DNA of 63,497 nucleotides, filler included, from Craspedostauros australis (taxonomy: Eukaryota), in NCBI GenBank assembly GCA_030167865.1. It is 11 parts of 11 records of this genome, joined end to end, with 100 filler letters (N's around TTAATTAATTAA, not from the genome) between each part and the next. Parts side by side here need not be neighbours in the genome. Positions count along the whole stretch, not along the records: positions 10,712 to 12,595 come from JALAGF010004615.1; 10 more parts are not named here. The stretch is one strand, 5' to 3'. Shown here in pieces: positions 110-63,497 of the stretch. The notes beneath the pieces are model-generated. The model was not told the DNA's origin. It did not search any database and was given only the letters and a program-made list of their open reading frames with translations. Position numbers and translations under genes: made by a program. Position 1 is the first letter of the stretch. The number at the start of each line of letters is the position of its first letter.

Positions 110-408
110 TGCTGATACGATGGTGTGCAATGATCAATGTTGTGAATTAGTATTTATGAGGAGCTGCATTGGTTGTTGCAGGTGTTTCGTCTCCTCCTGA
201 TCCACCGCGGTGATCGCGGTGATGTGCGGCCTTGCGGCGTCTTTCTACTCGGATCCACGGATTGTGTTCCTTGTCCTGGCCTGTTCCTGCTGTTCCTTCA
301 CCTTCGGCGAGGCTCGCCGAAGGCCGGGTTTGGAATGTGACGTGGTCCGGGTCAGGAAGCGTTTGGATGGTTGCACTTTGTCGTGACTGACTGGGGACTG
401 GATTGGCA
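110..408 (-). repeat. 3' LTR (299 bp)
   Basis: Direct repeat of 5355-5653. Preceded on the minus strand by the short purine-rich GCGAGGGTG (PPT-like). Confidence 0.97.
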
Positions 409-3400
409 CACCCTCGCGGAACACCTTGCATGCTTCGTAGTGCATTTTTGGCGCTGTCGGCGGTAGGTTTAAGATAGACGCCCCTCATGAGTCGATGATG
501 AGAGGTGGGGTGATGCTTGGTGAAGTAGTCAGCTAAGTTCTGGCCGCCCGGCGCCCAGTAGACGACAAACTGTCCTTGTTGGATGCGGTCGCGGACCCAG
601 TAGAAGCGCATGTCCATTGCTCGAGTGCGACGTTGCTTCATGGTGCCGTTGACGACGCCAGTGGCAGTGGAGTTGTCGGTCTTGACCGGGGTGGGTGGTT
701 GGGGATGGCCCATCTCGTTGAGCACAGTGCGGATGGCTGCTGCCTCGGTGCAGTTGTAGTACAGGGCACCGACTTCTGCCTCCGCTGCGGATGCCATGAC
801 GTGCGTCATGCGGTTGCACACGGTGAGGACAGCGCCGTTGTTGGGGACCGGCCGGCCTGGTGCAGCTCTCGGGTTGGTGGAGGGCTCGCCCATGTAGAGA
901 TGGCCTCCTGCGCGGCTTCGGGCCTTGGGTAGGCTCATGTAGGACGCGTCGCTGTCGACATGTAGCACCATGGAACTGCTGTGATACACGATGGTGGCGT
1001 TGGGATGTGTTGCTGCATAGTCCAGGAGCCGGTTCACCGCACGCTGCGTGTTCTCGGTCGCGTGGGCTTGCTGGGTAGCGATGTCGTGGATCGCTGGCAG
1101 CATGGTGGGATCGACTGCTCTCGCGTAGTACAAGAACGTGCCAACCACCTGTCGCATGCGCTCGATGTCCTCGGGCGGGAGTTTCGCAGACTTGTCTTCC
1201 GGTGTGGGTGCCTGTGAGGAGGAGCCGTACATCGGAGTGGCGCAATGAGCTGGCGAGTGCTGCGGTTTGTCGGGAGGCGGGTGCTGGAACTTGTGGAGCG
1301 CCTTCGCGACGTAGTTGGGCATGGACAGCTCGACAGTGCGAGCCAAGTAGTCCCACTTGAGGCGGATCCCACAGTAGAGATCTCCGGACCACTCTATGGT
1401 GATCTTGTAGATGGATTCCAAGGCTTTGATGAGATGCCGAGCATGTTCCTCACCGACGTATTTCACGCCGAAGTCGTCAACGACGAGCGTGAAGGAGATG
1501 GGTCGTTGGTCGTGGACCCAAAGTCCTGGGGTGTGTTGAACTGGACGATACCCGTACTTTGCCAAGTGCTTGGTGAGCTTCTGATTTGCGATGCGGCCTG
1601 CTTGTGGCAGCCCATACATTCCCTTTTGAATCTCCACGTACACTTGGCCGTTGTCAGCTTTCGCCGCGAGTTGGTACTGTTGGACGATCTCATCGGGCAT
1701 GAGGGAGAGGGGCATGCGCATGTACTCGAACCGCTCCATCTCTGTGTTCAAGTAGAAATCTTTGATGTCGATGGTCATGTACTTGGCATACGGCGTGGAG
1801 ACGACACTGTTGAGATGGCACTTAACTGCTGTGAGTTCGGCGGTTGGTGTGTGCACCTCAAAAGGGTATTCGACGAGATTTCCGCCGACGGTCAGTCGTG
1901 TGCGATGGGTCTCGGCCTTCTGAGGGCGCACAGCGCAGACGATGCGCCCGTAGGTGGGCTTGCGGTCGTTCGGCATTTGTTGGCGCTTGATGAAACGGAT
2001 GGTGTTGGTGGCTCGTTCCGCGGTGACGCGAGTTCCCACCCCTTGCGCAAGACGTCCGATCTCGTTGGCAAAGGACTTCTTCCACACGTCGGGGTCATGG
2101 CCGTGCACCTTCCCGGAGACGAGATGCCGGTACTCGTAAGACTTGCCAGTGGCCTCGTCGATGACAGCGTTGGCCTGTGCTGGGTTGCCCCATCGTCGCC
2201 GCTCGATCGCTCCAGTCGCCAGGCGCGTGCTGCGTCCTGGTGGGACAGCAATGTCAGGTTCAGTTGGCGCAGGCATAGCTCCGGTGGCAGGGCTGCGGGG
2301 TTCGTCGGGGACAAGGTTGCCGGCTGGCGCGTCGGGTGCAGTGGCCGCCAGTGGGGCCGTAGGCACCCTCGGAAGTTGGCGCCTGCTGGTGGTTTCGATT
2401 TCGCCGGGCTCGTATGGCACCCTCGGAGGTAGGCGTGTCGGGGGCGGTACCGGCGTCGTGGGAGGCGCTGGTGTGTCGGCAATTGGCACGGGCATGGTCG
2501 TCGGGCCGATGACTGGGGCCGCCGGTTGCGGTGGTGCGCGGGGCACGTTGCCTCGCAGTGGGGCAGCACGTGAGAAGATGGCAGATAGCTGACGGATGGC
2601 ATCAAGCTGTGCGTCGCCGATCTGCGTTTGGGTGGCCTGTGGCTGCTGGAGTGCGCTGGCTAGGTCAGAGGCGGCGGCGATGGCCGCTTCTGCCGTGGAC
2701 AGGAAAGGCAGAGTGCAGTGTGCTGGTTGCAGTTCAACGGTGTCGGTGATGCGGACACCTCGTGTCTTCGGGTTGTACACTTTGTAACACCGGTAATGCT
2801 CCAGAGCGGGCTCGACGTACCAGCAGGAGACGGCATGGGGTGCCCACGTCGCTCGCGCCTGTGGCTTGATGTGGACGATGGCCTTGGTGCCAGGCGGCGC
2901 CATAGGCGTGGCATCAAAGTTGTAGGAGCCGTAAATGATTTGGTATGCAGAGACATGCGGGTTGACACGCGAGGCGCGCATCATGTTGAGCGTCATATCG
3001 CACTGTGGCAAGAGTCGGCACCACAGGGTTAATGGAAAAGCGGCATCTGCCGTGGCGAGACCTGCGATGAAATGGTCTTTCCACGTGGAGATGGCCCGCT
3101 CAGCCGCGTTGCGTCGATGGATACCTGGAGGCACCAGCTGGTAGTCAAGGCCCTTGGACTGGATGAGCGTCCTGAGAGCAGACGGTGCTTCGTTGTCGAG
3201 TTTGTGAAGCTTCGGTCGCAGGCCGCGGGCAATGAGGAGATCGAGGAGCTCTCCGCAAGCGGTGGTGAGTTCTTTGGACGATCGGTTGCGCATGGGCCTG
3301 GATAGGATGGCGTTGCTGTCGTAGTCGTACAACACCATGATGTATCGGAACCCTCGACTGGACTGCACCGGGAACGCTCCGGTCTGGTCGGTGTATACCT

Positions 3401-4145
3401 TGCCAGTGGGCTCGAACACGGATGTGAAGATATCATGTGTGCGTTCCGTGGTGCCGACGGGCTCGGCAGCGGCCTGCATTGCTCGTCCTTTGGTGGAGCG
3501 TGAGTTCTGGTACTGTTGGCGCATGTGGCCGTGCAATGTGGCAGCGGACGGTGGGAGGTGCTGGCGCACCAATCCTTCCGTCAATCCAGGCCAAGTTGCA
3601 AAGAATCCCTTCTGTATTGCCACGGCCCACGTCGAAACGTTGGGGCTGAAGCAGCACTGATGGTAATACTTGATGAGGTCTGACTTGGATCGAAGGATGG
3701 AGGCGCGGTTGGCTTGACCCAGCGGTGGTTCGATGCCGACGCAGTACATTCCAGTGGCAGGATCATTGTGGCCGGAGAGCACTACTCGGTTGTCGTGGAT
3801 GACGCGGACGGCGCTGGCGTCAAATTCCACCTTTGCACCGGCCGCACAGATCTGTCGGACAGATAGAAGTGGGCGGCCGGCCAGATCGGGGAGAATTCGT
3901 GCCGTGCGGGCGCTGTCGGGGAGCGATGGTAGATGGATTTGGGCTACCTGTGTGGACGCGATGGTTTCGCCGTTGGGGAGGCGGACGCGCATCGGGTCAG
4001 GATCTGGCCGTGCATGTTGGCACGGGTCTTGCGGACGAAGAAAGTGGTGCGAGCAGCCTGAATCAATGATGGCTAGGGCAGACGTCGATGGAAAGGTGCG
4101 TACTAAAGTATTAGCCTGTCCAGTGGTTGGCGCCTGCCGTGGCGG
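147..4145 (-). CDS. pol: Copia Pol (PR-IN-RT-RNase H), in frame with gag after one TGA
   Basis: Protease IIDSGCSHHF lies upstream of the called Met at 3992. Integrase motifs YTDQTG, LDNE, NAAERAI. RT motifs KGMYGLPQAG, LVVDDFGV. RNase H motifs DSDAS, AEAE, TDNST, NLADYFTK. The stop lies inside the 3' LTR. Confidence 0.93.
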   Translation of the reverse strand, partial: PPRQAPTTGQANTLVRTFPSTSALAIIDSGCSHHFLRPQDPCQHARPDPDPMRVRLPNGETIASTQVAQIHLPSLPDSARTARILPDLAGRPLLSVRQICAAGAKVEFDASAVRVIHDNRVVLSGHNDPATGMYCVGIEPPLGQANRASILRSKSDLIKYYHQCCFSPNVSTWAVAIQKGFFATWPGLTEGLVRQHLPPSAATLHGHMRQQYQNSRSTKGRAMQAAAEPVGTTERTHDIFTSVFEPTGKVYTDQTGAFPVQSSRGFRYIMVLYDYDSNAILSRPMRNRSSKELTTACGELLDLLIARGLRPKLHKLDNEAPSALRTLIQSKGLDYQLVPPGIHRRNAAERAISTWKDHFIAGLATADAAFPLTLWCRLLPQCDMTLNMMRASRVNPHVSAYQIIYGSYNFDATPMAPPGTKAIVHIKPQARATWAPHAVSCWYVEPALEHYRCYKVYNPKTRGVRITDTVELQPAHCTLPFLSTAEAAIAAASDLASALQQPQATQTQIGDAQLDAIRQLSAIFSRAAPLRGNVPRAPPQPAAPVIGPTTMPVPIADTPAPPTTPVPPPTRLPPRVPYEPGEIETTSRRQLPRVPTAPLAATAPDAPAGNLVPDEPRSPATGAMPAPTEPDIAVPPGRSTRLATGAIERRRWGNPAQANAVIDEATGKSYEYRHLVSGKVHGHDPDVWKKSFANEIGRLAQGVGTRVTAERATNTIRFIKRQQMPNDRKPTYGRIVCAVRPQKAETHRTRLTVGGNLVEYPFEVHTPTAELTAVKCHLNSVVSTPYAKYMTIDIKDFYLNTEMERFEYMRMPLSLMPDEIVQQYQLAAKADNGQVYVEIQKGMYGLPQAGRIANQKLTKHLAKYGYRPVQHTPGLWVHDQRPISFTLVVDDFGVKYVGEEHARHLIKALESIYKITIEWSGDLYCGIRLKWDYLARTVELSMPNYVAKALHKFQHPPPDKPQHSPAHCATPMYGSSSQAPTPEDKSAKLPPEDIERMRQVVGTFLYYARAVDPTMLPAIHDIATQQAHATENTQRAVNRLLDYAATHPNATIVYHSSSMVLHVDSDASYMSLPKARSRAGGHLYMGEPSTNPRAAPGRPVPNNGAVLTVCNRMTHVMASAAEAEVGALYYNCTEAAAIRTVLNEMGHPQPPTPVKTDNSTATGVVNGTMKQRRTRAMDMRFYWVRDRIQQGQFVVYWAPGGQNLADYFTKHHPTSHHRLMRGVYLKPTADSAKNALRSMQGVPRGCANPVPSQSRQSATIQTLPDPDHVTFQTRPSASLAEGEGTAGTGQDKEHNPWIRVERRRKAAHHRDHRGGSGGDETPATTNAAPHKY

Positions 4146-5306
4146 TCAGGCCGTCGCGCCCTTGGCGGATCCTCCCAAGGTGTTGGCGGCAGTGGCCTCC
4201 TTCTGATGGCCGTGGGCAGGGTTACGGCACGTGGCGCTGTTGTGGCCGGTCGCGACGCGATGCCCATGGGTCCAGCAATACTCGCCGTTGGTCTGGCGTG
4301 CGGAGCGGACTTGCTTGGCGCTCTTCGCTTCTGCCTGCAGGCGTGCGATGGCGGCATTGGCTTCAGCGAGCTGCGCTGTCAGTGCTGCGTTGGTGCTAGT
4401 GAGGAGGGCCACCGCGTTACGGTCGGCGGCTGTGGCCTGCGCGAGGTTGGCAAGGGCTTCGGCCGTCATGCTGTCGTCGGGAGGTGGCTCCTCGCCTTGA
4501 GCATGGTTGGCTTGGAATCCCTGCTGCCCGGTGGTGACTCGGGAGTTCACCATCTCCTGGTACGCATCGGCAAAGAAGGTCTTGAACTCGGACCAGGTCT
4601 TCTGGGCTTGCGGGCGCATACGCCACTCACGGCAGGTTTCGACGAACTGGTTGGTGTCAAAGATGAGGGCATATGCGCGGGAGACGACCTGTGCGGAGGT
4701 GTAGGGTACTCCTGCTGCGTTGGCAACTTCCATGGCATCCTCCACTTGGTCCACGAGGACCTCGAATGGTTGTTCAGTGTTGAATGGTGTGCGGAAACGG
4801 GTGTCGTTGGCCTCCATGTCGATTGGAGTGAGCTTCCCATAGGTGTCGTACAAGTGCGTCAGGATGTCGAAGGTGGATACGTTGGTGTATCCCACCACAC
4901 GGTGACGGAGAGTCCTGTAGAACATCTCGCCGAAACACGCAAGGACCTGCTGCTTGAGGGCCTGTTCCATGACGAGCATCTCTCTCCAGAGCTCGGTGGC
5001 TTCTTCGTGTTCTTTCTGATGTTGTCGGATCTGGGCCTGTGTGCCATTGGGCATGGCGACGTAGGGACCAGGGTTCGCGGGCATGGCGAAGTCGATGTCT
5101 CCGGAGAGTGCGTTGTACTCTGCATTGGAGACAGTGAGAGCAAGCCATCCCAGGCTGCCATTGCCGAGGGGGCAGTGGACAGACGCTGCGTTGGCGTTGA
5201 GCTGGAGGTGGACAGCGGCGATATCCTCGTATTGAGGCGTACCGTGAACCACGGGAATCGTTGGGTGTGGGAACCCGTCGGTGTATCGCTCAAGAGATCG
5301 GACCAT
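4146..5306 (-). CDS. gag: Copia Gag (386 aa)
   Basis: ORF starts 48 nt after the 5' LTR. C-terminal Cys/His knuckle YCWTHG...HNSATC...H. Confidence 0.9.
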   Translation of the reverse strand: MVRSLERYTDGFPHPTIPVVHGTPQYEDIAAVHLQLNANAASVHCPLGNGSLGWLALTVSNAEYNALSGDIDFAMPANPGPYVAMPNGTQAQIRQHQKEHEEATELWREMLVMEQALKQQVLACFGEMFYRTLRHRVVGYTNVSTFDILTHLYDTYGKLTPIDMEANDTRFRTPFNTEQPFEVLVDQVEDAMEVANAAGVPYTSAQVVSRAYALIFDTNQFVETCREWRMRPQAQKTWSEFKTFFADAYQEMVNSRVTTGQQGFQANHAQGEEPPPDDSMTAEALANLAQATAADRNAVALLTSTNAALTAQLAEANAAIARLQAEAKSAKQVRSARQTNGEYCWTHGHRVATGHNSATCRNPAHGHQKEATAANTLGGSAKGATA

Positions 5307-5354
5307 GGTGGACGATGGTGTGGCTCTCGAGAGCGTGCGATACTAATTCACAAC

Positions 5355-6851: not shown

Positions 6852-6951
6852 NNNNNNNNNNNNNNNNNNNNNNNNNNNNNNNNNNNNNNNNNNNNTTAAT
6901 TAATTAANNNNNNNNNNNNNNNNNNNNNNNNNNNNNNNNNNNNNNNNNNNN
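6852..6951. other. Artificial contig linker (also 10612-10711, 12596-12695, 14996-15095, 22843-22942, 26437-26536, 34891-34990, 40477-40576, 60516-60615, 61916-62015)
   Basis: Identical 44N-TTAATTAATTAA-44N block with stops in all six frames. Confidence 0.98.
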
Positions 6952-9900
6952 GGTTCCACGTGGATGTAACCTGAAGCATGGTCTACGAAGATGGCTCCTC
7001 CCTTGTGCATGTCGGTTGGGTCGCCTTTTCCTCGTCCTGAGAAGAGGCGTCCTGGTGTGCGTCCGATGAAGTGGTCAACGGATACTTGTTGGCCAGGGAA
7101 CAGGTGATCGGTGCGTAGGGCTCCTTGTCTGTCACGGACAACATGCTGAGTTATACCTGGTGATGGGCGTCGGTGCAGTTTTCCGAACTGACACGCAGCG
7201 CAGAGGGGGAGGCTCATCACTTTGGCAGCTGCCGTGTGCATCTTCTTTGATGCTTCGGACCCTGTGAGCACACCCGATCGCAATAGGAACTTCACTCGAC
7301 CGAAGGATAAGTGTCCGAGGCGATAATGCCATCGAAGGAGTTCTTTTTGCGGTTCGGATATATTCACGTTGTGTTCCGAGACAGTTGAGACGATTGAGGA
7401 GAGTGCCGATGGAAGGTCGTGGATGTTGTCCGAGCCATATCCAGTTGAGGTGGGGAGCTTCGTCGTCTTCTTGTAGATCGCGATGATTGCGTTTCGGTTG
7501 TCGCTTCCCTTAATTCCGCTGAGTTTGCAGGAGGTCTTGTCAAAGGTGATGGTCTCACCAGGGTATTCTTCCAAGAGGCTTGACGTGCTGATGAGCTTGA
7601 CGCGTGATTGAGGCACATGGAAGGCGGGTAGTCGTAGCGTACGCGGGCTGCCCGTCACATCCAGAACGTGCCACTCCACAGTCCCGAGCGCTTTCACTTG
7701 GATCTTTTTCAGGAATCCATTGAGAAAAGTCGGTTTTGGAGGAGCGTTTGGGGTATCGCAAAAATCGTTGATGTCGTTGGTGACAGAGATGGATGCCCCG
7801 CTGTCCCACACAAGCTCAAAAGGTTCACTGGGGGACAGATAACCTTCGGCCTTTTGGGGGGAGGCGAAAGCGTGACGATTAGTGAAAAAGGAGGCAAGGC
7901 CATGGAGAGTCAGGAGATTTTCGAATGAAGTGGAGCACGCTGTAGTTTCGCGTTCACCAGTCGTGAGGTCGAATTTGGGGTAGAGACGCCAAAATTCATG
8001 TGAGAGGGGTTGACCTCCAAATGTGGGATGGTGGTGCCGGTCGGTCACGCAAGGCGATCCTTGAGGTGGTGAATAGTGTCTTTTGCCATAAGTGGGTGGC
8101 TTGGTTGACAGTTTCGGACCACCTCGGTTGGGACGCCTTGGTTTCGATTTGTGAGTTTTGGTTCGGGTTCGGCGAACCCAACGACGCTTGTTTTGTTTTG
8201 GCGTCCGGTCGGACGTTTTGGTCCGCTCGATCATCACATCATGAAGACTGCGCGTTACAGCTTCATTGAAGCGGGTTGGACGAACTCGGTGTCGCTGGGT
8301 TTCTTCCTTGATCCTCGCCTTTGAGTAGGTCAGATCGTTGGAGCGGAGAGTGTGTGGCCTTCGCGGGACGTTGGTGTGTAGTAGTACCAGCGTGATGGCT
8401 GTGATCATCCAAACGTTTGCCGCTGCGATATACCATCCATGTTCAACTCCCAGTGCGATGACTTGAAGCGTTGCGAAGAACAGGATTACGCCAATGGTTC
8501 CATTGAGATAGTTGAAGGAGGTGAAGAGGTTCCAGACTAGAGACCACCAGGTGTCTTCGTCCTGACTGGCTGCGGCGGTGAAGCACGTCCAAGCTGCCAT
8601 GTCGATTTCGAGGTTATCAGTTTTGGGGTTCGCCTTGCCGGTTGCCTTAGGTTTGAAGTTGTCCTGGTGACTCTCTGTGTTGTGCGAGAGGCGCCATCGG
8701 CGACACTTGGCACACCACATGAAGGTCTTGTCGTTGACGAGCTTGCGCTGTGGCTCCCCGGGCTTGGGTGGCGTGGAAGACCACCCACGATTGGAGTTAC
8801 GATTGCCGTCGTGTTCTCTGCCCTTTTTGGCTGGCACCTTCGTTCCGTTCTTCTTGGTGAACCCTCTGTGTTGTTCGAGGACGTTAGCGCTGTGCTTGTT
8901 CGTGGCGTTGTTCGCGTACGAAGTTCTAGGAACACCGGTATCCCTGACGCGTCGAGTGGCATGCCAGCGGTCCCCGCGTACCTCGTTGTCGTACGAGGAC
9001 TGTGCCTTGTTGCAAATCGCCATCCACGTGAGGTCCTTGGCGGCCAGCTTTGGCAAGGCGTGCTCGTACGTGAATACAGGGAGACGCATGAGGATCTTCT
9101 CAAGGTCATCCTTCATCACATAGAGAGGACGTCGGTACTGTTCACCGGAGAGGCTCTTCCCTCCCGCTTGGAGGAAGGCGTCAAGGATGTTGCGGAGGAG
9201 ACGGAGGTCGAAGCGACCGGCGTCGTCGAGGCGTTTGCAGAGCGAACGGAGATGGACGGCCATGGATCCCACGTTGTCACCAGCAAACTGGTGGCTTCGA
9301 ACGGAGCGAATGCGATCCGTGATCATGTCTTGCTCATCCAGCGAGTTGGCCGTGATGCTGTTCATGAACTCGATGAAGAGCGTGATGAAGTTGTTGTGGT
9401 ACGTCGGCTCGATACGGTTCATCAGCTGGTCTTCGAGGGTTGGATCAAGGCTGTCACGGAAGAAGGCTGCGGCCGTCCAGTTGTTCTGGACGTCGTAGTG
9501 GTCCCATCTTGGACTGTACTCATCGAAGTGCCTTGTGGCGTCCTCAAGAGTGAAGGAAGCCGGAGCATCGAGAACACAGGTCATCTTGGATGTGGCCGTG
9601 TCGTTGGAGATGTAGGCCATGGTGATGAGTCCGGTCTTGGACAGGTGATTGCGCACAAGGCGAACGAACTGCTGAATGCTGTTCCCTTTCTTGAACTTGT
9701 CAGTTAACCCAGTTTCGCGCTTGGATTGGTTGGTGGAGTCCGCCCCGTTGTGAAGGATTCTCTGCTGTTGGGAGTTCGTCCACATGGTCTGGGATTCGTC
9801 TTCGAGGCCCGTCCAGGTTGAGTTCGGTGCTCCTCCTGTCCAGGGGACCCAGTTGCGGCCTTGCAGGCGGAGGCCTCCCATGATGGGGGCCGTGGGCTTG

Positions 9901-10238
9901 CCGGAGAGGTCGGGGTCTCCATCTTCGCTTTCACTGCCGGGATCGTTCTTCCTTTTGGTCGCTGGCGTCTCAATGTCACCAAAGAGACTCCCGCTTAGGA
10001 AGGAGGGGTTGAGGTCATCACGGGTTGTCGTCCCGGCTCCGCCTGGGTTGAGACCGGCGCGGAGAGGGGTGGCGCTGGTTCCCGACGCTGTTTGCGTGGT
10101 TGCCGCTGCCACCCTTGCAGCTTCTGCAGCTGTTTCGGCTGCGATTGCGGCCTGTGTGAGGCGCGTATTCTCAGTGGTGAGCGCTTGGAGCTGCGCTTGC
10201 AGCTCTTCCAGCGTGAGGGGGTTAGCCTCATCCGCCAT
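6952..10238 (-). mobile_element. Second, unrelated copia gag-pol ORF (gag, PR, pre-integrase Zn finger, start of integrase), truncated by contig end
   Basis: Knuckle WCAKCRRW..SHNTESH, protease WDSGASISVT, Zn finger WHYRLGH...CAACQFGK, integrase VSVDHF. Confidence 0.9.
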
Positions 10239-10711
10239 GGTGGATGGCGTGGGCTTCAGAGAGGTCTTCGGACTTCACGGATCGATCTTTCTTGCGTCCT
10301 GCTGATTTCGCTTGGTCTCACTTCTTGGAAGGTGTGCACTGAGACTCGGCGAAAGCTCTTGAGGAGGCAAGCGCTTGGTGTTCAAGCGGTTGGGTTGCTT
10401 GCTTGGCAGAGGCTGCTGTCAGGTGACACTGTCGGTCACTGGCAGGTGGGACTTTTGTCTTGGGTTGCTCGGTTTTCGAGCGATGGCGTCTGACGATGAT
10501 TCAGATGCATTCGGATGAAGACCCTGAGGTCTTGCTTGAGTTGGGTTGCTCGGTTTGCGAGCTGCGCCTTTTGGCTTGGTCTCTGAGAGACCGTGCGAGC
10601 GGTTGGCAGAGNNNNNNNNNNNNNNNNNNNNNNNNNNNNNNNNNNNNNNNNNNNNTTAATTAATTAANNNNNNNNNNNNNNNNNNNNNNNNNNNNNNNNN
10701 NNNNNNNNNNN

Positions 10712-12595
10712 GGTCTACCATCGTAGATTTGATTGTCTGTATCCGAATCTGTGTCTGCTGTGTTGTTGATTGCTCCCTGAATAAACCAGTTTGCGTGTTC
10801 GCCGTCATCACCTGCTTCTCTGTTGCTGCCAGCGGCTTGGGCGACAATGACTCCGAATGCCCCTCGCAATGTTTCCAACGAAACCGAAACACTGCTGCGA
10901 TGATTCAGCATGTTACGGTAGGTCTGCAGCACCGTTGCGTTGTCCAGGTCTCTATTCGTGTGAACATCGTCTGTGCAACAGTAGTGCATTAGCTTGTGCA
11001 GAAACAGAAGGATGACTTCCACAATCCGTACCACTGCTTGGCATTGGAAGGTTGCGAATGGCGGCTGCACCTTGTGCTGCCTCATCATCCTGGTCATCAA
11101 ATCAGAGCCGCCCTTGAATGAATTCCAACGGGCTACAAACGATGGAACCAAGGTGTGGACCTTTGGCACCGGCATTGGTAGTTCCTGGCATGCCTTCCAT
11201 ATCATCAATTGGTGGAATACATCCTCTTCTGTCAATGACGCAATGTGTTTCCCCCCGGTTGAGCCCATGTGGGGGTTGCGTTTCGAATTCAGATACTTTC
11301 GCAGCGTCTTGCCTGACGCTGCCTCGCGGGACGCGGCAGTGGAGTGCGCGTATGCAAACTCCAACTTCAGCTCATACAGATTTTGTAGCACGATTCCGTA
11401 TGATTGAAGTACATTGGGTTGGAAGTGTGTGGACATTGATCTTATGGTGTTAGCAGTTGCATCACCTGGTGGTAGGAGGAGGTTGGTTCGAGAGGATCAG
11501 TGGAGAAAAGCAAGAACAGTTGGAGTGAGCACCGCGTATCGACTTTTGAAATTCATGGCAGGAGCTCCATCCATTTCATACAAGGACGTACCAATTACAA
11601 TCATCGCCCCTGTCACCCCAAAGACGAAGGCATGATGAAGCAGTTGAATCATCTCTGATTTCTTTTCGAATAATGNCCTCCACTTGTCGTCTTGGAGATC
11701 CACGAACACATGGCTCTTTCCCTCTGTCCCATGCTCCCAATCGGCCTTCCGCTGGTGCCGTCTTTCGAGGTCTTCTGTGTCTGTCGTTGCCCGAGTCTTG
11801 ATCTCCACAACAAAGACTTCATCGTCGCTGTCGTCCTCTGGATCACCGACGATTGCAAGGAAGTCGACGGAGGCGCGGGCGTATGGTGCATTGGTGTTTC
11901 GCACCACCCCCACTTGGTATGTTGCCTTCACTTGCCTTCCCTCGCCGCCCACTCCAACACAGTGGAGGGCCTGCTTCATGAGGGGAGCTTCGTTTTTGTG
12001 GCCCAGCTTGGCGAGCTTTCCAGCCTTGCCCCGAACCGACTTCATGAACCACGATTGTAACATGAGAGTCGTGAGGTCGTNGTCAAGCTTGTGCATCCAC
12101 TCTGAAGTGGTGCTTCCTGCCTGGAAACTGGATGGATGGTCAGGCTCCTGCTCGATCTCCTTCATTGCCAGGGCAACCAATCTCTCCACAACCTTCTCTC
12201 GTGGCATTTTCGTTATGTTGGTCTTGGGGAGACGAGCCTTGAGGTCTTTCTTGAGGGAGGCGTCGCTGAAGGCCAGGAATCGCCGTCGAACCTTGTCATC
12301 ATCAGCAAGGATGGTGCGGAGCATTTTGCATCGTGTGGCTTTGCTTCGCTGGGCCTTGCTGCGGTAAAAAATAGCCATGAGTTCGATGAAGTCTTTGTCT
12401 GAGAAGGTATCCTCTTCAGGGGCATCGTCGCGGAGAGAGGAGAGAAGTGCAATTTCAACATGACGGGAATTGAAGGTGGGAGATGTGAGTTTGGAGTATA
12501 AATCAAGTGCGCGCAATCTCGCCTTTTCTGCTTGCAATGCTTGGAGGTACTTCGCCTTCCGACCAAGCACGTCATATCCCAAGTAGCGGCCAATG
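10712..12595 (-). mobile_element. piggyBac-like transposase/YqaJ-nuclease fusion, copy 1 (partial; intron 11466-11591)
   Basis: Nuclease motifs LGHKNE, ASVDF, VEIK (EIK 11797-11805) and QLLHH are spliced via a GT-AG intron to ARWNSFKGGSD, which resembles the piggyBac YN..MGGVD motif. Collinear with 20900-22110. Confidence 0.75.
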
Positions 12596-15541: not shown

Positions 15542-18500
15542 CCTCTAAGATGTGCTGTGGGCTTTCCACCATCGTCCTCCTCCTCCTCCTTCTCTTCGTT
15601 GTGTCTATTGCGATCTCTCAGGCTGTGGTTCTTGGGGCTGTTCTGTTCCTCATCCCATTTCCAGTAACACCCAGTAAGCTCCAATTCCAACAGCATCTTT
15701 GATTGTCTATATCAAACCACCCATCACCCTCCTTCGTTTGCCCTGGCACCACCTTCGAATCATGTGTTAGGAATCGAGGGTACGACTTTGTCGGAATATC
15801 CATTATTGTCGCACCTCCCAACACTATTCGTCACACCTTTGAATAGTATTCGTCACATGTTAGCTACCATGACCGTTAATGCTGGACGTACTCTTGTGGA
15901 TATGGAGTATCTCCCATCCTCAGCCAAGGATGGATATGTCGCACCCTTTGTCGATGATGGAGATAGGGACGTCTGGCTTGGGATAGAATTGAGATTTGTT
16001 GCTGGTTTGCAGTAGGGACATGATCTCTTTCTTTCCTAAAGCGTAGGAAGAGGTACTGGGGCTGTTGGATGTAGTCATGATGGGGTTGTGGTTGTCAGTC
16101 GTTGTTTTCTGTTATTGTTGTGTGCAACGTAGAGAAAAGGAAGACAGACATGGAGCAACGCATTGTGAGTGACTGTCCTCATTGTTCAACACCAGACTTA
16201 CCTTTTGGCAGTTCATGGTACAATGGGCGGTACACAAGCATGCACTTGGACATCAATGTAAGACAGTTGAAAGTTGTCAGGCATAAGCTACGACATTGAA
16301 TCCTTTGTCACAGGTAGTCTAGGGTGTGGGGAATGGCATGTGTGTTAAATCCTCTTTCGGCCATTACTTGGTGGATGGAGAGTGTTTCAAGGCAGACTTG
16401 AGTTTCTTTCTCTCGTCTTTCTTGTCGTAACTTCCAGAGTAACCGCGACGTCTGTTGTTGGTCGCTTTTCCTTTTCCTCCTTTCTGGTTGGAACGTCCAC
16501 CTCCTTTGTTAGTAATCGACTTGGCGTCATTGTCTTTGTTGTGGTCTTCCCCACTGGTCTTGGCACCAGAAGCATCAACCGCGAGAACCTTCGAAGTTTG
16601 CTAAGCGTAGGCCTCTTATTCCGAGTTGGAGATGAGCAACTTTGCTTTGATTCTTCCAACGAGCTTTTGGATAGGCAATGCATCCCAGGAGTTTTCGATC
16701 TCAGTCTTGATGTCGTTGGACTGAATGGACGTCTTGAACGTCTCGGTTTGCTTCACCAGAGCGTCGGGAGGGTTAAAGTCGAAACCATCCACTTCAATGC
16801 TCCTTTTGTTGGTCATCATGCAGTTGTTGACCAGGGTCAGGTACTGCTTGGTGTACTCGTCGAATTCGGTTACCTTTCCGTTGAATCTCACGGAAGTGAG
16901 ACCATGGATCTTAGACTTGATGATTTGGTTGAGGAAGAATGGGTCAATGAAGCTATCACAGATGTTCTTCCATGTGTGGTGGCCGCTTCCCCTTCCATAT
17001 ATGGTGGATGCATCGCCGCAGTGGATCAGGTGTGAACCTGTGGTCCCTGAGACGTCAAGTGCCTCACTGAGTACCCCGAATAGAACAGAGTTCTTGATCG
17101 GAAACTCATCAGCCACCTTGGAGTCATTGGCAACCTCCATCAATTCCATAACGCCTAACATGGCAGATGCCTGAAGCTTCCAACTGGGGAAGTCGTATGG
17201 GTCACCGCCAAATTTGGCGAGTTTGCGGATGGTCTTTACCTCAGCGCGGGGCTTGTTGGCCTGTTTCTTGATCGTTCCGTTCTGCAAGAAGGATCCTGCA
17301 TTTTCACACAGTTCTGCATAGGTCTCACTGGTGTAAGGTCTGCCCTTGTGTTTGAGCACCCAGACTGCAGCTCCTAAGACGTCGATAGCCGTCCTAGTAT
17401 AATCACCGATCTCTCCCATGAAGTCCATGTCCTTCAAGTTTGTTGGGGCAAAGTAGATACCTTGAACATTGTCTCCATGGAGATTCCAGTGAATGGTGAG
17501 CTTGAATGCAATCGCATTGCTCTTATCCCTTCCTTCAATCGCAGCTAAAGCTCTGTAGTAGCCAAGTGCTTTCATGATGGTTGGGTATGCTCCATCATTG
17601 GCCTTGAATACGTCCTCTGGTTGAGGCTCATAGCTAAGGATATTGTAGGTGACCTCCTCTCCTTCGTCGGACATCATGGTTCTTATGGATATGCTTATCT
17701 CTCAGGTCGTACCTTGGGGCTAGCTGTGTCAGTTTCTTCTTCTATTCTTAGTACTGTTGTTGGGTTTCAATAACAGTAAGCGGCAAAGAAGCAATGTAGC
17801 GAACGCAGTGTTAGTCATTTAGTCTCAAGGTATTGATATGTGATTTGGTGCAAACTGGTCACTGTTCAATCATCTTGGAGGAGGTATGGCTGACGGCTGG
17901 GGAGAGCGTGGCGTTGGCACCATGGCGGCTTTGGCGGAGGAGGAGGCGACATGGATAGTTTGAGTTAAAAGCAAGAAATGGATGCAAGCGATGTGCTAAT
18001 CGTGGAGCTTTAACGCCCGGCATCCTACGATAGCATGTTAGCGTTAGTCCCTTGTGGAGATTTGGTTTGTATGGATAGTGCTTTAGGTCTGTGTCCAGCA
18101 GGGTCCTTATTCGGCATGTTACGTGTAATTTCCGATCACACTCTATGGTACTCAGGGTCTTGTACATGTCGATCCCTTGACATGACTCATCTATTTCACG
18201 GTAAAGGTGCGCGAATCCTTATACTGACCAGCATTTCGTTATCATTAATGAAGTGTGATACTTGTAATGCGGTTATCTGCAGCGGTTCCTAGGGTCACCA
18301 GGATACCAACTGAGGTCCGAACTCAGGTGGTAAGCCATGGGTCTTCTAAACGTCAACCTGTCTCTATCGTGGGAATAAATACAGTTGTTACCCACTCCAT
18401 TAACTATAGCAGATAGTCAGGCTGCATGGTTAAATAAGTATCCCTCCACGGTAGAACCATTGAGTTATATCGATGTATTCCATACGTGTGGTTAACTCTC

Positions 18501-18677: not shown

Positions 18678-21600
18678 AGTACTACGCCATGTTGACATTT
18701 GGTACCTCATCTTGTCTGTACAAAGAAGCATTTGCAAAGGATGATGTGAAGATGGATGCATTGGAGTACCTGCAGTTCATGGTTGCATTCAGCACACAAT
18801 CAACCTTCCGGACATCCACGAAAGACATGTACACCATGGGCTTGCTGAGCACCAAAGTGGGGGCACCAAGCAAGACCGAATACAACAATTGGTGTTGCAA
18901 ACTCCAGGAAGACGGCAACAAGATCGAGTCCAATGCTCACTACTTCTGGCAGGATCTCCAGGCTCAGTGCAATCACACTTTGAAGCAACTGGTTGTGAGA
19001 GGCACAGCTGGCCAACGCACTGTGACAATCGACGATGATAAAGTGCACTGCGAGAGCACCAAAACATTGCGAAGTGGCATCTCCCGGCACAAGCATCCGA
19101 AGCCCAACAGATGGGGGTGAGTTGTACAATGTCAATACTGTGCTTTTGGATCATGGGATTGAATGTATGTCATGATTGTACAATTGTCAATCATTTTGAA
19201 TCTCACACACACCACATGCATGTCTGCATCCCTCTCTTTCTCATCAAACTCTGTTGCTTCCCTATCTCTTGAACTTGTGAAATGTTGATGCAAAGATTCA
19301 CCATCAATACCTTGGCAATGACGATGTCTGGGGTCCCTTGCAGAGTCCAAGTCATCCAGGAAACCAAGACGAACACTGCAAAGGATCTGATTGAGGACCA
19401 ATTTGCAACCACCAATGCCCTGCAGAACACAGAAGTTCTCTGTGATCGCGGATATGGCTCTCTCAAGCTCACACAGGGTCTTGTTGAAGGCGGAGCGGAC
19501 ATTCAAGGCACTCACAAGAGGGCTCCACACATGCCATTCATCAATGGAACGTACCGGACCAACCCAAACCAACTCATGATCAGTGTGACAGAACCCACAA
19601 GACTCTTCCTTGCCACCTCCAGCAAGGTGAAGGGTGCGACCTACTGTTGCTATGGTCTCCAAGACAACGGAAAGATGATCATGATGGCAAAGACAGGAGT
19701 TGGAAGGTTCGACTGGGATCTCACCATGGCAAAGGTGAAAGAGGAGATCATGTACCATCGCCATGTCCAAGCCAAGCGCACAAATCACCCAGATCTTCTG
19801 GCTCATCCAGAGAAGTTCCCAGAGTACTTCTCTGCAGCTGTCGTGAACCTGGAGAAGTCTCCTGCTGTGGTGCTCGCAATTCAGGCCAGAGACAAAGCAA
19901 TTCAAGCCATCCAGAATGCACCGAATGACCCAGATGCAGTCAAGGCAGCTGTCATCCTTGCCAAACAAGCCTCACAGGCACCAGACAACGCGAAAGACAA
20001 GGCAAGGATGAGATGGGCACAGAAGATTCGAGACCTTGATGTTGTTGGGATGACCTGCAAACAGCGAGATCCACTTTGGTTCATGTTGCGAAAGTTCTGC
20101 TTGACCAGCTCCACTGTCCACAACATCATCAACGTGGTCCTGGCCAGCACCGAGTGCTGCAAGGAGACGAATGGCCATGTTCTCCATCATCAGGCATGGG
20201 AAATCATTGCCACATTCATGGGCATCGACGTTGAAGCCAGAAAGCAACAAACTCATGTGGAGATTGGAACAGGTGAAGTCAAGAATCGGGCACAAGAGCG
20301 ATTCAATCTCCTCACAGATGATGCCGAAGACTCAAAATCCATCGAGCAAACAATCACCCAAGTTCTTCAGAATCGCGACAATCCTCCTGTCGACTGGCTG
20401 CTCGAGGATGTGACTGAATTGGTGGTGCTCTTCTGTGGTGGGTTCAAGCCAAAAACAGCTGACAGTATCTACAAGAAGCTCAGGACTGTGATCCAACAAC
20501 ATCAGAAGCCGGATCGCCGGTATGTTGCCATGACACCAAAGACCATGGAGGCAATCTACAAGGCAAGATTCCCCAACTCTGGCAAACTTCCGGCAAAGGG
20601 TGAAATGATGAAGGCATTGGTGCGGCATGACAAAGCATCCATCACTTTGGCTCTTGACAATCTGGAGGTGGATGGTGGCGACGACAATGTTGAGGGCAGC
20701 ATCACCAGCAATATCGCCCGTTTCCCATCGGCCGACGACGGCGTTGGCATCGACTCTCTGGCTTCCCTTCCTGTTGAAGCCGATGTCATGCTTGCCACCG
20801 GACACAATGTCGAAGGCGATACTGAAGGCATCACCAACAACGATGTGAGGAATAACGAAGAGGACGGAGGCATGATGGCGCTGAAGGAGGCCTTGGTGAA
20901 AGAGGCACCGAAGACGTGGTTCATGAAGCCTTTCACTGGTGAGGAGCAACGTGCCACCAGACTGGGCCACACCAATGAGCAGCCACTCATGAAGAAAGCT
21001 GAGAAGGTATCGAAATTGACTGGAGATCCTAGCTGTGTGAAGGCCGCATACACAGCAGGGTTGGTGCATCGCGGAGACAAGCCCTATGCTCGATCATCCG
21101 TTGACTTTCTTGCAGTTGTCGGAGACAGCACCAACGATGAAGATGATGAGGTCTTTGTACTCCAGGGCCTCAAGCAAAACCAAGGAGGAGGAGAAGGAGC
21201 ATCAGTTGTCTTTGCAGCACCAATACCGGCTGAATCCCAACTTGCATCTCTTTGCAGATTCAGAGATCGACATCTTTCAGGCATTGATCCGCAAGGAAGG
21301 TGAAAGACTCCAGTTGCTCCATCATGCATTCGTCCACGGTGTCAGCGGAGCACTCATGGTGATTGGTAAGCTTGATGGCATCGGCGTTGACTATGTGTAA
21401 TGAAATTGGGCCCATGCTGCTTCCGCCCATGCATGATGTTCGCATGCTTTTGACACCATACTAACTTGTTGCTCGCTCTGCTACTTGTGCTGTGTTGATT
21501 GGAACTGCATGGCAAGCAGGCGACAGCAAGGCCAAAATCCTCAGATCCATTGCAACCAGATTCACACCTGCGTTGATGGAAGCCTATGCCTTGGTACTTG

Positions 21601-22727
21601 ACGATCTGTGCAAGCTTGTGATCGAGTTTGCATACGAAGAAGATTCACTGGGACGAATTCCATCTGAAGATCTCATGAGGCAGTTCATGTCATCCAATCC
21701 AGGCAGCGGCAACTTCGAGGGCAAAGGCTCCTACCTCCCGAACATGTCAGAGGATGACCTCTTCCATCAGCTCATGATGTGGAAAGGATGCGACAATCTC
21801 ACCTTCCCGGTCCCTCGCGTCAAGACCTTCCTTCCAAAGCTGGCAGCAAGGTGGAACATCATGAAGGGTGGTTCCGATATCATGTCAAGATTGATGGAAC
21901 AGCACAAGGTGAAGCCCCCAAAAGTCTCCTTCCAATGCGTACTCGTGTCACGTCTTATGCAACTGATGATGACACTTGTGCACAAGCTAATCCAGATCAC
22001 GGACAACAGGGCAATCAAGACAAATGCAGATCTCGATCGATCACCATCGTTGATCCATCTTCGGAACAAGATGAACAAGAAGTGGAGCTACTGTGACTCC
22101 CTTGCTGCCATTACCAAATGCCTATTCCACCACTTGGCTGTGGCATACACTCAAACCCGACTGGCACATGAAACGAATGACAAGAAGAGGCTCAGACACA
22201 TTGAAGAAAAGCTGAATCTCTCCAGTGGCATCAAATCATTCCATGGTGGTGACTTCAAATTGAATGGAGCACCGGAGACATGACAGCCATTGTTGGCCAT
22301 CCTTGGAAAGACCCCAGCTGAGAGAACTGCCTCAGAGGCATCATTCATCGAAGGCCTGCACAAAGGGGACCATACCCTTGTGATGTTTCAAGGCAAGAGG
22401 AGAAGCTGTGTGGTGTGCAAACTGAAAGTCACAACATATTGTACAGGATGTCATCTCACCGTCTGTGGAGCCAGCAGGAAAGCAAAGGCAAAGTCTGCAT
22501 GGCTGGAGAAGTGTGACATCCCAGGTCATCTGGCACTGTTGAAGGTACCCGATGAAGATGGGGTCCTGGTGATTCCCAACACATGTCACCACATCCTGCA
22601 TAGCAGAGACACCAAATGGTGCACGAAGGTTGGGAAAGGATTGCAGGAGGCTGCTTGGCCTGCGGCTGTGGCAGTTCAGAGCGGTCACGAACGAGCTGAA
22701 GAAGATGGAACAGATGGCAGGGCAACA

Positions 22728-22842
22728 ACAGCACCAGCACCAGCATCAGCACCAGCATCAGCATCAGCACCAGCATCAGCACCAGCACCAGCATCAGCAC
22801 CAGCATCAGCACCAGCATCAGCACCAGCATCAGCACCAGCAT
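22728..22842 (+). repeat. Hexamer microsatellite (CAGCAC/CAGCAT)n
   Basis: Seen directly. Encodes APAS in the transposase frame and runs into the gap. Confidence 0.9.
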
Positions 22843-22942
22843 NNNNNNNNNNNNNNNNNNNNNNNNNNNNNNNNNNNNNNNNNNNNTTAATTAATTAANN
22901 NNNNNNNNNNNNNNNNNNNNNNNNNNNNNNNNNNNNNNNNNN

Positions 22943-23850
22943 GAATAGAGCATTCGATCATCTTTCCTGTCTGGGTTCCTCGATGCACCTCATCAAATGC
23001 AAGCTGTATTTGTGAAATCAGCTGGGCGTTGGCCGGGTTAATGATTCCCAACCCGCCAAGCGAGGTTGTNNNNNNNNNNNNNNNNNNNNNNNNNNNNNNN
23101 NNNNNNNNNNNNNNNNNNNNNNNNNNNNNNNNNNNNNNNNNNNNNNNNNGTCGCCATTGTTGTCTGGAAAGCTGCGTCATTGGCAGGGCATACTCGATCG
23201 TCTTCAGGAACCTCAGCGATAGCGCCGACTTAGCATCTTCCGGTGATATCTGTGATGTCCGCATTCTGTCTCCGAAATCCTCGGCCTTCACTCGCATCCT
23301 CTGCATCTGCTCTGTCTGGTCGCCATCAAAATCAATGAACACTCCCAGTGTGAACAGGGGTTGGTCCATTGTCTTGTAGGGTATCTCTGGCCTGACACCG
23401 TTTGCGTCCTCGATTTGGATGGTGGTGCGGGTGTCGACGTCCTTCCAGCCCCACTCGTCTTTGACGAACTCGGGCTGGATGGCCCACCAAGCTGACTTAG
23501 CAGGAACCAACGCCCCGCCTGTCACTCTCAACAGCCGGCTCCAGTCGTGGACCATACTCTTGAATGCCTCCGTGTCGGCTCCTTCGCTGCCTGTGACCTC
23601 CAGTCGGACCAGATCCGTGTCGTCAACAAACGCCGAGCCAAGGATCTCAATGACCTCTCCGTCGGGCGTCGTCACTTGGGATGCATGCCCCAACTTGAGC
23701 ATAGCATTGAATATCACGGAGCTGATGACAGCCCAAATCGCAGGGCCCGCTCCGTTGCCTTGTCCAATGCAGTTAGGAATCGGGCGTAGTCGGCGCGAAT
23801 CGGTGGAGGATGTCTCTTGGATCTGCCGGCTTCGGGATAGCCGTGTGATG
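22943..23850 (-). mobile_element. Non-LTR retrotransposon reverse transcriptase fragment
   Basis: GQGNGAGPAIW, AFVDDTDL (YADD equivalent), TGGALVPAKS, TLGV and GGLG motifs. Confidence 0.85.
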
Positions 23851-23851
23851 A

Positions 23852-24451
23852 AGTTCAAGAAAGGTGTACTGATTGAAGAGTTAACTGTAACGATGAGAAG
23901 TAGAGTGCTTTGTAGCTAATCCTTGTCTGTTTTATGAGTTAGCTTGTGGTGTTAGTAGGGTGAAGAAACGATGTCACCCAACTTGGCGAGACCCTGCACT
24001 GATGTACTTGGTTCAGTGCTACAGGGTGGACGATCATTACAGTGCCTTGCTCTCCATACATGTAGATACACTGCAGTGTAGATCATGACGCCTGGTCGTG
24101 ACGATCATGAAGCTGTGGCTGTGGCTGGAGCTGACCCTCGGATTCCATTGCTCGAGTTGAAGCAGGTTGGATACACACGTCAAAACTACGGCAGTGGTGC
24201 AGTAGTCATCAGCATGAAGGGAATCGAGGTATGTTGTAGTAAAAGGATCTGAGGAGCATATAGTTCCCAAGGTGTGGTGTGAGTCAGGTCGGTCATGTTT
24301 GAGTCATGATGGATTCGTGAATGGAGGAAAGGAAGGAGGAGAAAAGATTTGGTGGTCAATCAAGTCGGAAGATTTCGCGCCAAAACAAGAATTTCTCCCG
24401 TCGGGTTGATACCGTGTTCGGTAATAGTCTGTCCCTCATTGAATCTCAACT
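23852..24451 (-). repeat. Solo-like LTR of the copia family at 62016-63497 (left boundary tentative)
   Basis: 24051-24451 is closely similar to 62016-62417. Both copies end at ...GAATCTCAACT, which abuts the PPT in the 62-kb copy. The element interrupts the non-LTR RT. No TSD found. Confidence 0.75.
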
Positions 24452-40405: not shown

Positions 40406-40576
40406 GACGAATATTCAGATTCGTGTATGACCCGGTAGGGGTCACAGTTGCGCAAATGACTGCTCACACATATTTGNNNNNNNNNNNNNNNNNNNNNNNN
40501 NNNNNNNNNNNNNNNNNNNNTTAATTAATTAANNNNNNNNNNNNNNNNNNNNNNNNNNNNNNNNNNNNNNNNNNNN

Positions 40577-41289
40577 ACGGCACTGCGCGTACTGGGCGTT
40601 CCCATCCCTGAACCTGCGATCCTACTTGGTGACAACAAGTCTGTGGTGTTGAATACGACAATCCCGTCAAGCGTCCTCAAGAAGAAGCATTGTGGCATCG
40701 CTTACCACCGTGTCAGGGAAGCCATCGCAGCAGGAGCCGTGCAATTCCTCCACATCACGTCACACGACAATGAAGCTGACCTGCTCACGAAACCAGTGTC
40801 GAAAGCCGTCTTCCATCGCCTCATCCGGATGTCCATATTCCGAGCACCTGCACACCTGAAGAAAGCCAAGGAGACGACGAAGATTCTGCCAGCTGAGCCA
40901 ACCGCAAGTACATCACATGACAACATGGTCCATGCATTCGTACATGTGTATCAGGCTACGCACGTGTATACTCCCCGTCATACCCTGAAGGGGCGTAATG
41001 AAGAGAAGTGGTCAAGCGGGTCGGCCACAAACCGGTAGGGAAGCAGAACAGCAACCGAACGTGTCAAAGATCGAAGGCACGCGCACACCACGCGCACACC
41101 ACGCGCACACCACGCACANACCACGCACAGACCACGCACAGACCAAAGCAGCAGCAAAGCAGCGAAACAGCAGCGAAACGAAGAAAAGGCAAACACAAAC
41201 GAGATCACCCAAAACAAAAACAAAGACTTCGGTCATAATCCGTTCAGACGATCCTTTCACCATCACTTGACACCACTTTCGCTTCAATA
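40577..41289 (+). mobile_element. 3' end of a copia element: RNase H, PPT and ~294-bp 3' LTR (40996-41289)
   Basis: LGDNKSVV, KKKHCGIAYHRVRE, NEADLLTKP. GAAGGGGCG is followed by a segment bounded by ~22-bp imperfect inverted repeats. Confidence 0.8.
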
Positions 41290-62015: not shown

Positions 62016-63497
62016 TCTCCACACACGTAGATACACTGCAGTGTAGATCATGGCACATGGCAGTGACGACCATGAAGCAGTGGCTGTGGTTGGAGCTGGT
62101 TCTCGGATTCCATTGCTTGAGTTGAAGCAGGTTGGATACACGCGTTAAGACTACAGCAGTGGTGCAGTAGTCATCAGCATGAAGGGAATCAAGGTAAGTT
62201 GTAGTAAAAGGATCTGAGGAGCATATAGTTCCCAAGGTGGGGTGTGAGTCAGGTCGGTCATGTTTGAGTCATGATGGATTCGTGAATGGAGGAGAGAAAG
62301 GAGGAGAAAAAGATTTGGTGGTCGATCAAGTCGGAAGATTTCGCGCCAAAACAAGAATTTCTCCCATCNNNNNNNNNNNNNNNNNNNNNNTAGTCTGTCC
62401 CTCATTGAATCTCAACTCTCCCTCTCAGTGTTGGGTCGTGATTGGAGTTGTGGTATCGATGAAAACTTCATCCTTCGTTGTTGTTTGTTGGTTCTTACCA
62501 GCCCATGATTTTGAACCGTAAGTATTCGAAGACCGCGATGGACAGTCCCTTCGTGAAGATGTCTGCAAGTTGTTCCGGCGTGGAGATATGTTGGATGCAA
62601 ATGAAGCCTGCCTTAACCCAGTACCAAAAGAAGTACCACTTGGTTAAAAAGTGTTTGGTGCGCGCGGTCGGCTGATGATTGGTGGCGAGGGAAATGCAGG
62701 CTTGGTTGTCCTCGAAGACAGTGCACTGGAGGTTGGTGTGCANCGGCATGTCGGTGCCGGCGTTGTTAATCACTTGGCGAATGAGTTGTTGGATGGGAAT
62801 CAATGTTCGCATTGCCAGGGAGAGAGCGGCGTATTCGGACTCCATCGTGGATAATGCGATCTCAGTTTGGAGTTTCGACTTCCAAATGAGAGGGCATCCA
62901 CCCAATGTGATGAGATATCCCGTGCGTGATTTCACCGACACTGGATCTTTGCNNNNNNNNNNNNNNNNNNNNNNNNNNNNNNNNNNNNNNNNNNNNNNNN
63001 NNNNNNNNNNNNNNNNNNNNNNNNNNNNNNNNNNNNNNNNNNNNNNNNNNNNNNNNNNNNNNNNNNNNNNNNNNNNNNNNNNNNNNNNNNNNNNNNNNNN
63101 NNNNNNNNNNNNNNNNNNNGCGACTTGGGAGACTGCGAAGGCGAGATCGGGACGAGTGTTCGTTGTGAGGTAGAGCAACATGCCGACGACAGAGCGGTAG
63201 TTCCATTTCTCGTTCATGGCTGGTTCATCCTTGCACTGTCCGAGTGCGAGTTGGGTAGTGGGTACCGGGCATGGATTGCAGTTCGACATCTTCGTTGTCT
63301 CAAGGACCTTTTTAATCAACCCTGGTTGTCGAAGATGGACAGTATCCGCCTTCGGGTCACGGTAGAGCTCAATTCCTAGGAATTCAGTGAAGCTGCCTTC
63401 CTGGGTGAGCTCAAACCCGAGTTCACGCATTGATGCAATGAAATCGTCTGCATCCTTCTTGGTCTTGGAGGCGATTCCTGCATCGTCAACGTAGAGA
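62016..63497 (-). mobile_element. 3' part of a copia element: RT-RNase H (63497-62495), PPT (62418-62426) and partial 3' LTR (62016-62417)
   Basis: YVDDAG, FLGIE, YRSVVGMLLYL..TRPDLAFAV, KSRTGY, ALSTMESEY, FEDNQAC, QLADIFTKGL; PPT GAGAGGGAG. Confidence 0.92.

Follow-up and report, generated by a model that had tools for sequence, protein, structure and literature searches.

A piggyBac-type transposon family of Craspedostauros australis with an ATAT target and a predicted lambda-exonuclease-like domain nested in its transposase

How is a nuclease accommodated within the catalytic core of a transposase, and what might it do there? The question is raised by a transposon gene of Craspedostauros australis (assembly GCA_030167865.1) found in two divergent copies in the window, the 63,497-nucleotide stretch analyzed here, in which contigs are chained by N linkers. 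Copy A is one 1,884-bp contig (G000:C4615, window 10712-12595, minus strand) whose ends cut the gene, and copy B lies on a separate contig (C4617). A first-pass annotation had claimed that both copies encode the same fusion of two domains, with a complete nuclease active site and a shared intron position, and that this architecture is old and selected rather than an accidental nesting of two elements. Our analysis leaves very little doubt that the gene encodes a D-D-D transposase of the piggyBac type in which a lambda-exonuclease/YqaJ PD-(D/E)xK domain is nested.

Architecture and fold of the fused protein

Removal of a 126-nt phase-1 GT..AG intron in the Gly of VIG|D (11466..11591) leaves a single stop-free 586-aa frame across the entire copy A contig. 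The motifs quoted in the first-pass annotation are all on the minus strand and in the order it gave, and copy A does carry the fusion. The 3′ part of exon 2 (11592..12595, cut by the contig end) encodes a helical spacer followed by a lambda-exonuclease-like catalytic core. In this core, WFMK...GHKNE (11989..12051, with WFMK at 12051-12040 and GHKNE at 12003-11989) corresponds to nuclease motif II (G..E), VDFL...VEIK (11797..11868, with VDFL at 11868-11857 and VEIK at 11808-11797) to the catalytic D and ExK of the PD-(D/E)xK site, and QLLHH (11632..11646) to the conserved Gln motif of the nuclease. The 5′ part of exon 3 (10712..11465, also cut by the contig end) covers the end of the nuclease fold, the third catalytic Asp of the transposase and then helices; its RWNSFKGGSD (11101..11130) is the counterpart of piggyBac YYNQTKGGVD, which contains Y439, N440 and D447.

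These residues are nearly invariant in our homolog alignment A9: G (69/69) and E (68/69) in motif II, D (67/68), E (67/68) and K (66/68) in the PD-(D/E)xK site, Q (66/67), and, within RWNSFKGGSD, D (64/64), W/Y (62/62) and N (60/62). The three transposase Asp residues show no exception (D1 56/56, D2 63/63, D3 64/64), conservation of W, R, S, G, E, D, E, K and Q of the nuclease is 97-100%, including W (67/69), R (69/70) and S (69/70) of motif I, and four Cys of a C-terminal Cys-rich domain are kept in 58/58, 62/62, 60/61 and 60/61 sequences. The nuclease active site said to be complete is so in part: catalytic E, D, ExK and Q are within the copy A contig, while motif I (W..R..TS), like D1 and D2, lies upstream of the contig end and is known for copy A via sister copies (95-98% identical) and copy B. 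Overlapping sisters (C673, C6619, C6146, C2915, C2177 and C6047) tie the subfamily of copy A to a left end, CCATAAAG, and a right end, CCATGAGG, and give it a Cys-rich domain, present in C2915 and C2177. In one homolog (P0041), a Tesmin/TSO1-like CXC domain follows the Cys-rich domain (Pfam E 1.7e-10).

The whole is a single transposase, ~1,150-1,400 aa long in intronless homologs, in which D1 and D2 are followed by an insertion domain, the lambda-exonuclease domain, D3 and the Cys-rich domain, and the lambda-exonuclease domain is itself split by a helical spacer, which in several homologs bears a SAP or Rho_N-like DNA-binding module. An AlphaFold model of the Fragilariopsis cylindrus homolog OEU17716.1 (P0163; 77 sequences, pLDDT 85, pTM 0.74) has piggyBac 6x67 as its best match (Z 22.4, root-mean-square deviation [rmsd] 3.7, 365 aligned residues, model 83-992; Foldseek E 1.4e-5). 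Its match to lambda exonuclease 6m9k (Z 13.6, rmsd 3.9, 189 aligned, model 421-865) falls between D2 (residue 299) and D3 (residue 900). Lambda exonuclease/YqaJ proteins (6m9k, 3sm4, LHK-Exo 3syy) share this fold at Z 13.2-13.6 and the motifs W..R..TS, G..E, D, ExK and Q; unlike them, the family's domain is interrupted by its spacer (206-594 aa in C. australis) and embedded in a transposase. At the sequence level, profile A10 matches 6x67 at E 7.7e-9 with KGGvD aligned on D447, which sets the equivalence of D3, that of D1 and D2 to D268 and D346 being set by motif and order. In searches of the PDB by sequence, the genome-only profiles A1-A3 gave nothing meaningful and profile A7 gave weak lambda-exonuclease matches only (E 0.12).

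Inheritance of the fusion and of its introns

A contig of the public run X1, guessed to be RNA, joins the two exons of copy A exactly, with 126 nt skipped between CT..AC ends and 166 + 45 matching bases, no mismatches, at depth 11. Homologs lacking the intron continue straight across the exon junction, and when the C. australis exons are aligned to the family profile (probability 99.95-100), exon 2 stops at column 766 and exon 3 restarts at column 769. The phase-1 GT donor is found in 24/25 distinct genome copies, the acceptor being located 113-154 nt on in 21, and there is no intronless copy among these 25. Exon 1 ends in ...LDDDK...NRxG with a phase-2 donor in 12/12 copies shown.

As claimed, the phase-1 intron occupies the same codon position in both copies of the window (126 nt in copy A, 154 nt in copy B). 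The first-pass annotation had read this sharing as a sign of the age of the fusion, an argument that does not carry: it shows only that both copies belong to one clade, because 10/10 genome copies tested group together (support 1.0). Age is indicated instead by distant homologs, which have a mean identity of ~27% among the 42 used for both domain trees. Judged from the sequences, the introns mark one radiation in the host lineage, and the fusion is a single older event.

Homologs were collected with an exon 2 profile (436 representatives at E <= 0.001, the best 150 of 436 taken). The full order D1-D2-motif I-nuclease-D3-Cys-rich domain is present in 44/192 stored proteins, the remainder being fragments, and the nuclease lies between D2 and D3 in 57/57 database proteins spanning both, a count biased against nuclease-free relatives since the queries bore the nuclease. 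A D1-D2-weighted profile aimed at such relatives gave 19 matches, all near the query and none named, with architecture unscored. Named homologs are from diatoms (Seminavis robusta CAB9497204.1, F. cylindrus OEU22028.1 and OEU17716.1, and a JGI Psemu1 model), and one F. cylindrus homolog bears the UniRef name 'PiggyBac transposable element-derived protein domain-containing'; going by these relatives, the host would be a diatom. A basal homolog is similar to a cluster in the ESM Atlas in which Oomycota is the most frequent taxon (phylum assigned for 2 members). Word matching with exon 2 brought up no relatives of greater length, viral and prokaryote scans of low sensitivity found no relative, an ESM Atlas search with exon 2 gave no usable match, and a metagenome scan gave one 2-kb contig without ends.

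Nei-Gojobori ratios of nonsynonymous to synonymous substitution (dN/dS) between genome copies, as the first-pass annotation had advised computing, are below 1 in every scored region: 0.09-0.43 where dS is measurable, many between-subfamily pairs being saturated and the Cys-rich domain lying outside the scored regions, and 0.10-0.36 in the nuclease core. In separate trees of the two domains (42/77 homologs with both parts), 15/16 supported splits of the nuclease tree are also present in that of the transposase, with 0 conflicts. These comparisons show the fusion to be one old, selected and co-inherited architecture, with purifying selection on both predicted active sites. The view of the first-pass annotation on this point thus stands, as 57/57 proteins spanning D2 to D3, dN/dS and congruent trees agree; of the two findings it had named as fatal, members mostly lacking one domain and an unspliced intron, neither appeared, the nuclease being in every protein that spans its site and the intron being absent from both the X1 joint and the intronless homologs. 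That two elements nested by chance, that the intron is an unspliced pseudo-intron or that the assembly produced an artefact has next to no probability as an explanation: the assembly is fragmented, N runs and duplicated internal stretches occur in several copies, and copy B is broken, but the spliced joint in X1, the whole order within one chain and the congruent domain trees refute it, and dN/dS <1 also speaks against it.

Copy B (18680..22842, plus strand) is a decayed member of the same family, 92% identical to its sister C4082. It retains D1 DDDK (19031-19042), an inferred phase-2 intron (19117-19295), D2 DRGY (19444-19455) and nuclease motif I (from 20077). A 10-bp deletion near 21159 removes ExK and shifts the frame; the 154-nt GT..AG intron (21366-21519) then precedes KGGSD, and an in-frame stop (22281) precedes the Cys-rich domain (from 22407), all on the plus strand. 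The first-pass description of well-diverged DNA with proteins aligning by motif proved accurate: protein identity is 39-49% within conserved blocks, only two short pieces of DNA align (247 bp at 66% and 54 bp at 72%), and alignment of the introns does not exceed that of shuffled sequences (score -15 vs -23.6 +/- 5.2). The 5′ part of copy B is missing, likeness to C4082 beginning near 18698, and the gag-like frame upstream (16616-17701, minus strand) suggests a nested long terminal repeat (LTR) element.

Element ends and the ATAT target

The genome-wide count proposed in the first-pass annotation gave at least 74 matches for the nuclease half (80 candidates scored) and at least 46 for the post-intron half (49 scored) in the 65.9-Mb assembly, duplicated contigs included. 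Longer copies have three exons, exon 2 containing DRGY, WF.R.F..TS, a 206-594-aa spacer and the core of the nuclease, and exon 3 containing WN..KGGSD and the Cys-rich domain. In one subfamily (exon 2 of L068, L071 and L076), a Ser/Thr-rich low-complexity stretch extends the nuclease spacer to 470-594 aa with the frame open.

The element is mobile, bounded by terminal inverted repeats (TIRs), specific for ATAT and represented by recent copies. Four copies with both ends measure 5,182-6,641 bp, start with CC, end with GG and have ATAT on each side; their TIRs are 9-15 bp of perfect repeat inside imperfect repeats of 100-190 bp. One terminus, from one subfamily, was found 37 times and is preceded by ATAT in 36/37 cases, and a second end pattern has ATAT at 24/25 distinct ends; bases beyond ATAT vary freely. 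TTAA, the canonical piggyBac target, is absent among these 37 ends and 25 distinct ends. A degenerate pattern of ATAT plus terminus matched 234 times, and its reversed control 0 times. For copy C1987, a single ATAT joins the two flanks at 9/9 paralogous empty sites, and young copies with open frames exist, such as C4912, 95% identical to two siblings. The palindromic flanks are also compatible with a 2-bp TA duplication beside T-CC ends or with blunt AT|AT insertion; a 4-bp duplication is preferred because of the piggyBac fold.

Non-autonomous derivatives of the family are present as well. A 3.55-kb derivative from the subfamily of copy A, amplified and internally deleted (C673:2596-6153, also C6047 and C540), has both ends, and its fused frame matches database protein P0001. 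Family ends also delimit L188 (C3009, ~2.85 kb), L187 (C1147, ~1.9 kb) and L191 (C1330, ~0.15 kb), whose insides have no match to the autonomous copies compared. Other contigs of the window contain remnants of two LTR retrotransposons of the Copia type, whose gag/pol frames are long and open, at 147-5342 and 6900-10274 (-), the latter with a GAG-pre-integrase match, and fragments at 22887-23915 (-), 40529-41038 (-) and 62495-63496 (-) that resemble, in translation only, a non-LTR reverse transcriptase and the RNase H ends of Copia elements.

Predicted roles of the nuclease and relation to known transposons

By analogy with piggyBac, the DDD site would nick the element ends, form and open 4-nt hairpins and insert the element into ATAT. 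A passage of PMC7351741 reports contacts of piggyBac Y439 and N440 with T-3 and A-2 in the TTAA hairpin; the equivalents of both residues are kept in the family as W/N, and the contacted central T and A are identical in ATAT and TTAA. If the piggyBac pathway is followed, donor flanks and opened hairpins would both bear 5′-phosphorylated 4-nt overhangs. Lambda exonuclease needs 5′-phosphorylated ends, and its motif I binds the 5′-phosphate. The nuclease is predicted to be a 5′-phosphate-dependent 5′-to-3′ enzyme acting in cis on transposase-made ends, and such processing in cis is favoured because the overhangs would be the end type that lambda exonuclease needs. We consider it rather probable that the family combines piggyBac-type identity with an active end-processing role for the nuclease.

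Of the specific roles, the likeliest, which we propose tentatively, is that the nuclease resects the donor break, so that seamless rejoining would be blocked and homologous repair would restore the element, with a net gain in copies. The 3.55-kb derivative counts in favour of this proposal, having a 5-bp overlap at its deletion junction, as gap repair would leave. Next comes the more doubtful idea that the nuclease would trim the excised element at its 4-nt 5′ overhangs. That the nuclease cuts the non-transferred strand at the ends in place of hairpin formation, in the manner of TnsA, whose role in Tn7 is noted in a passage of PMC3627910, seems to us unlikely. A PD-(D/E)xK fold beside a DDD site within one chain and nuclease catalytic residues about as invariant as DDD are what it would lead one to expect, but the Y439/N440 equivalents are kept, although these residues also serve target binding, and the nearest folds are end-dependent exonucleases (lambda, LHK-Exo) with motif I retained. 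Less likely again is a job outside strand chemistry, such as end binding or target opening, degradation of extrachromosomal copies so that they do less damage, or the countering of host silencing. The SAP or Rho_N-like module of the spacer would suit it, and an unrelated DEDDh exonuclease of KolobokD has been proposed to degrade intermediates (in the part of PMC9587614 concerned). However, a purely structural role leaves the near-invariant E, D, ExK and Q unexplained, and a host-directed one would not require nesting within the catalytic core.

Several points weigh against a two-active-site piggyBac relative. Both activities, transposase and nuclease, are predicted. The structure was modelled on the homolog OEU17716.1 and not on the C. 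australis protein, for which the model of exon 2 alone (8 sequences) was poor (pLDDT 53.6) and was not used. Pfam searches with the exons and homologs gave no piggyBac or YqaJ match at cut-off, the best sub-threshold matches being DDE_Tnp_1 (E 1.2e-4), YqaJ (E 0.017-0.024) and DDE_Tnp_1_7 (E 0.035; best 13.8 bits vs a gathering cut-off of 22.4, in 37 homologs). Splicing was seen in a single 215-nt contig from one run. Matching empty sites came from only 1/3 full copies tested (C1987): in C949, neither flank matches the empty site of the other, and the left flank of C4912 is the end of another ATAT-flanked repeat. This repeat (L063:5478-5600), which has ATAT after it in 8/9 other copies, is probably non-autonomous and a member of the same group, with one ATAT shared. 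Deletion derivatives are common in all cut-and-paste families and support gap repair weakly. Lambda exonuclease, finally, acts as a trimer ring, which is no simple fit with a dimeric transposase.

The closest known system is piggyBac (6x67; piggyBat 9c0f), which provides the best fold matches (Z 22.4 and 20.5, respectively) and shares the D-D-D site with KGGxD at the third Asp, the Y439/N440 equivalents, the C-terminal Cys-rich domain, ends starting with CC, a strict 4-bp AT-only palindromic target and asymmetric subterminal repeats. The family differs in its target (ATAT, not TTAA), in a protein about twice as long, of 11-12% identity and under the Pfam cut-off, and in a D2-D3 distance of 473-775 aa vs 101, which is large because the lambda-exonuclease domain is nested there. 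We regard it as a variant rather than a canonical piggyBac because it departs on TTAA and on the Pfam cut-off, despite its catalytic, Cys-rich and terminal features. In the passages concerned, PMC5381638 treats ATAT in a piggyBac context as a rare single-copy exception, and PMC3627910 cites for some piggyBacs a DEDDh nuclease, whose fold differs from that of the nested domain. KolobokE also bears a lambda-exonuclease-type nuclease, located, as PMC9587614 describes it in part, on the downstream side of the transposase domain rather than inside the core between D2 and D3; Kolobok elements have TTAA, RR..YY ends, a C/DxxH signature and a final E, in contrast to ATAT, CC..GG and a third residue D here. 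ISL2EU, in sections of PMC4482050 and PMC4122938, likewise has a YqaJ exonuclease and an AT-centred target, but its nuclease is a separate open reading frame beside a Harbinger-like transposase with THAP, and its A|AT|T target, 2-bp duplication and ends starting with GG differ from a single chain and CC ends beside ATAT.

The literature searched, supplements and Repbase excluded, described neither a lambda exonuclease nested in a piggyBac nor ATAT as the systematic target of one. Diatom elements 'weakly related to piggyBac' are noted in a passage of PMC2806351 and may represent the same family. The names piggyBacA and piggyBacX were not found in the transposon papers searched. In Repbase, piggyBacA has ATAT duplications and piggyBacX comprises divergent piggyBacs of red algae and oomycetes, the latter being the commonest taxon of the ESM Atlas cluster named above; the ATAT target, perhaps the family itself, may already be catalogued there.

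Our tentative overall proposal is of an undescribed old piggyBac-type lineage of diatoms and probably other stramenopiles, whose core exonuclease, of phage type, would resect the donor break or cut the second strand, so that the traceless excision of piggyBac would become a reaction with two active sites, a gain in copies and an ATAT target of its own. Family proteins are probably under-annotated in algal genomes, since Pfam misses them. Several groups of eukaryotic transposons bear a nuclease resembling lambda exonuclease, with no known role according to a passage of PMC4482050; here, the predicted nuclease sits within the transposase chain of a relative of piggyBac, whose chemistry and structure are known, so that its role could be tested by one point mutant. 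The family also illustrates a shift of strict target specificity, from TTAA to ATAT, in which the central contacts would be retained, and its young open-frame copies, such as C4912, are candidate integration tools directed at another target.
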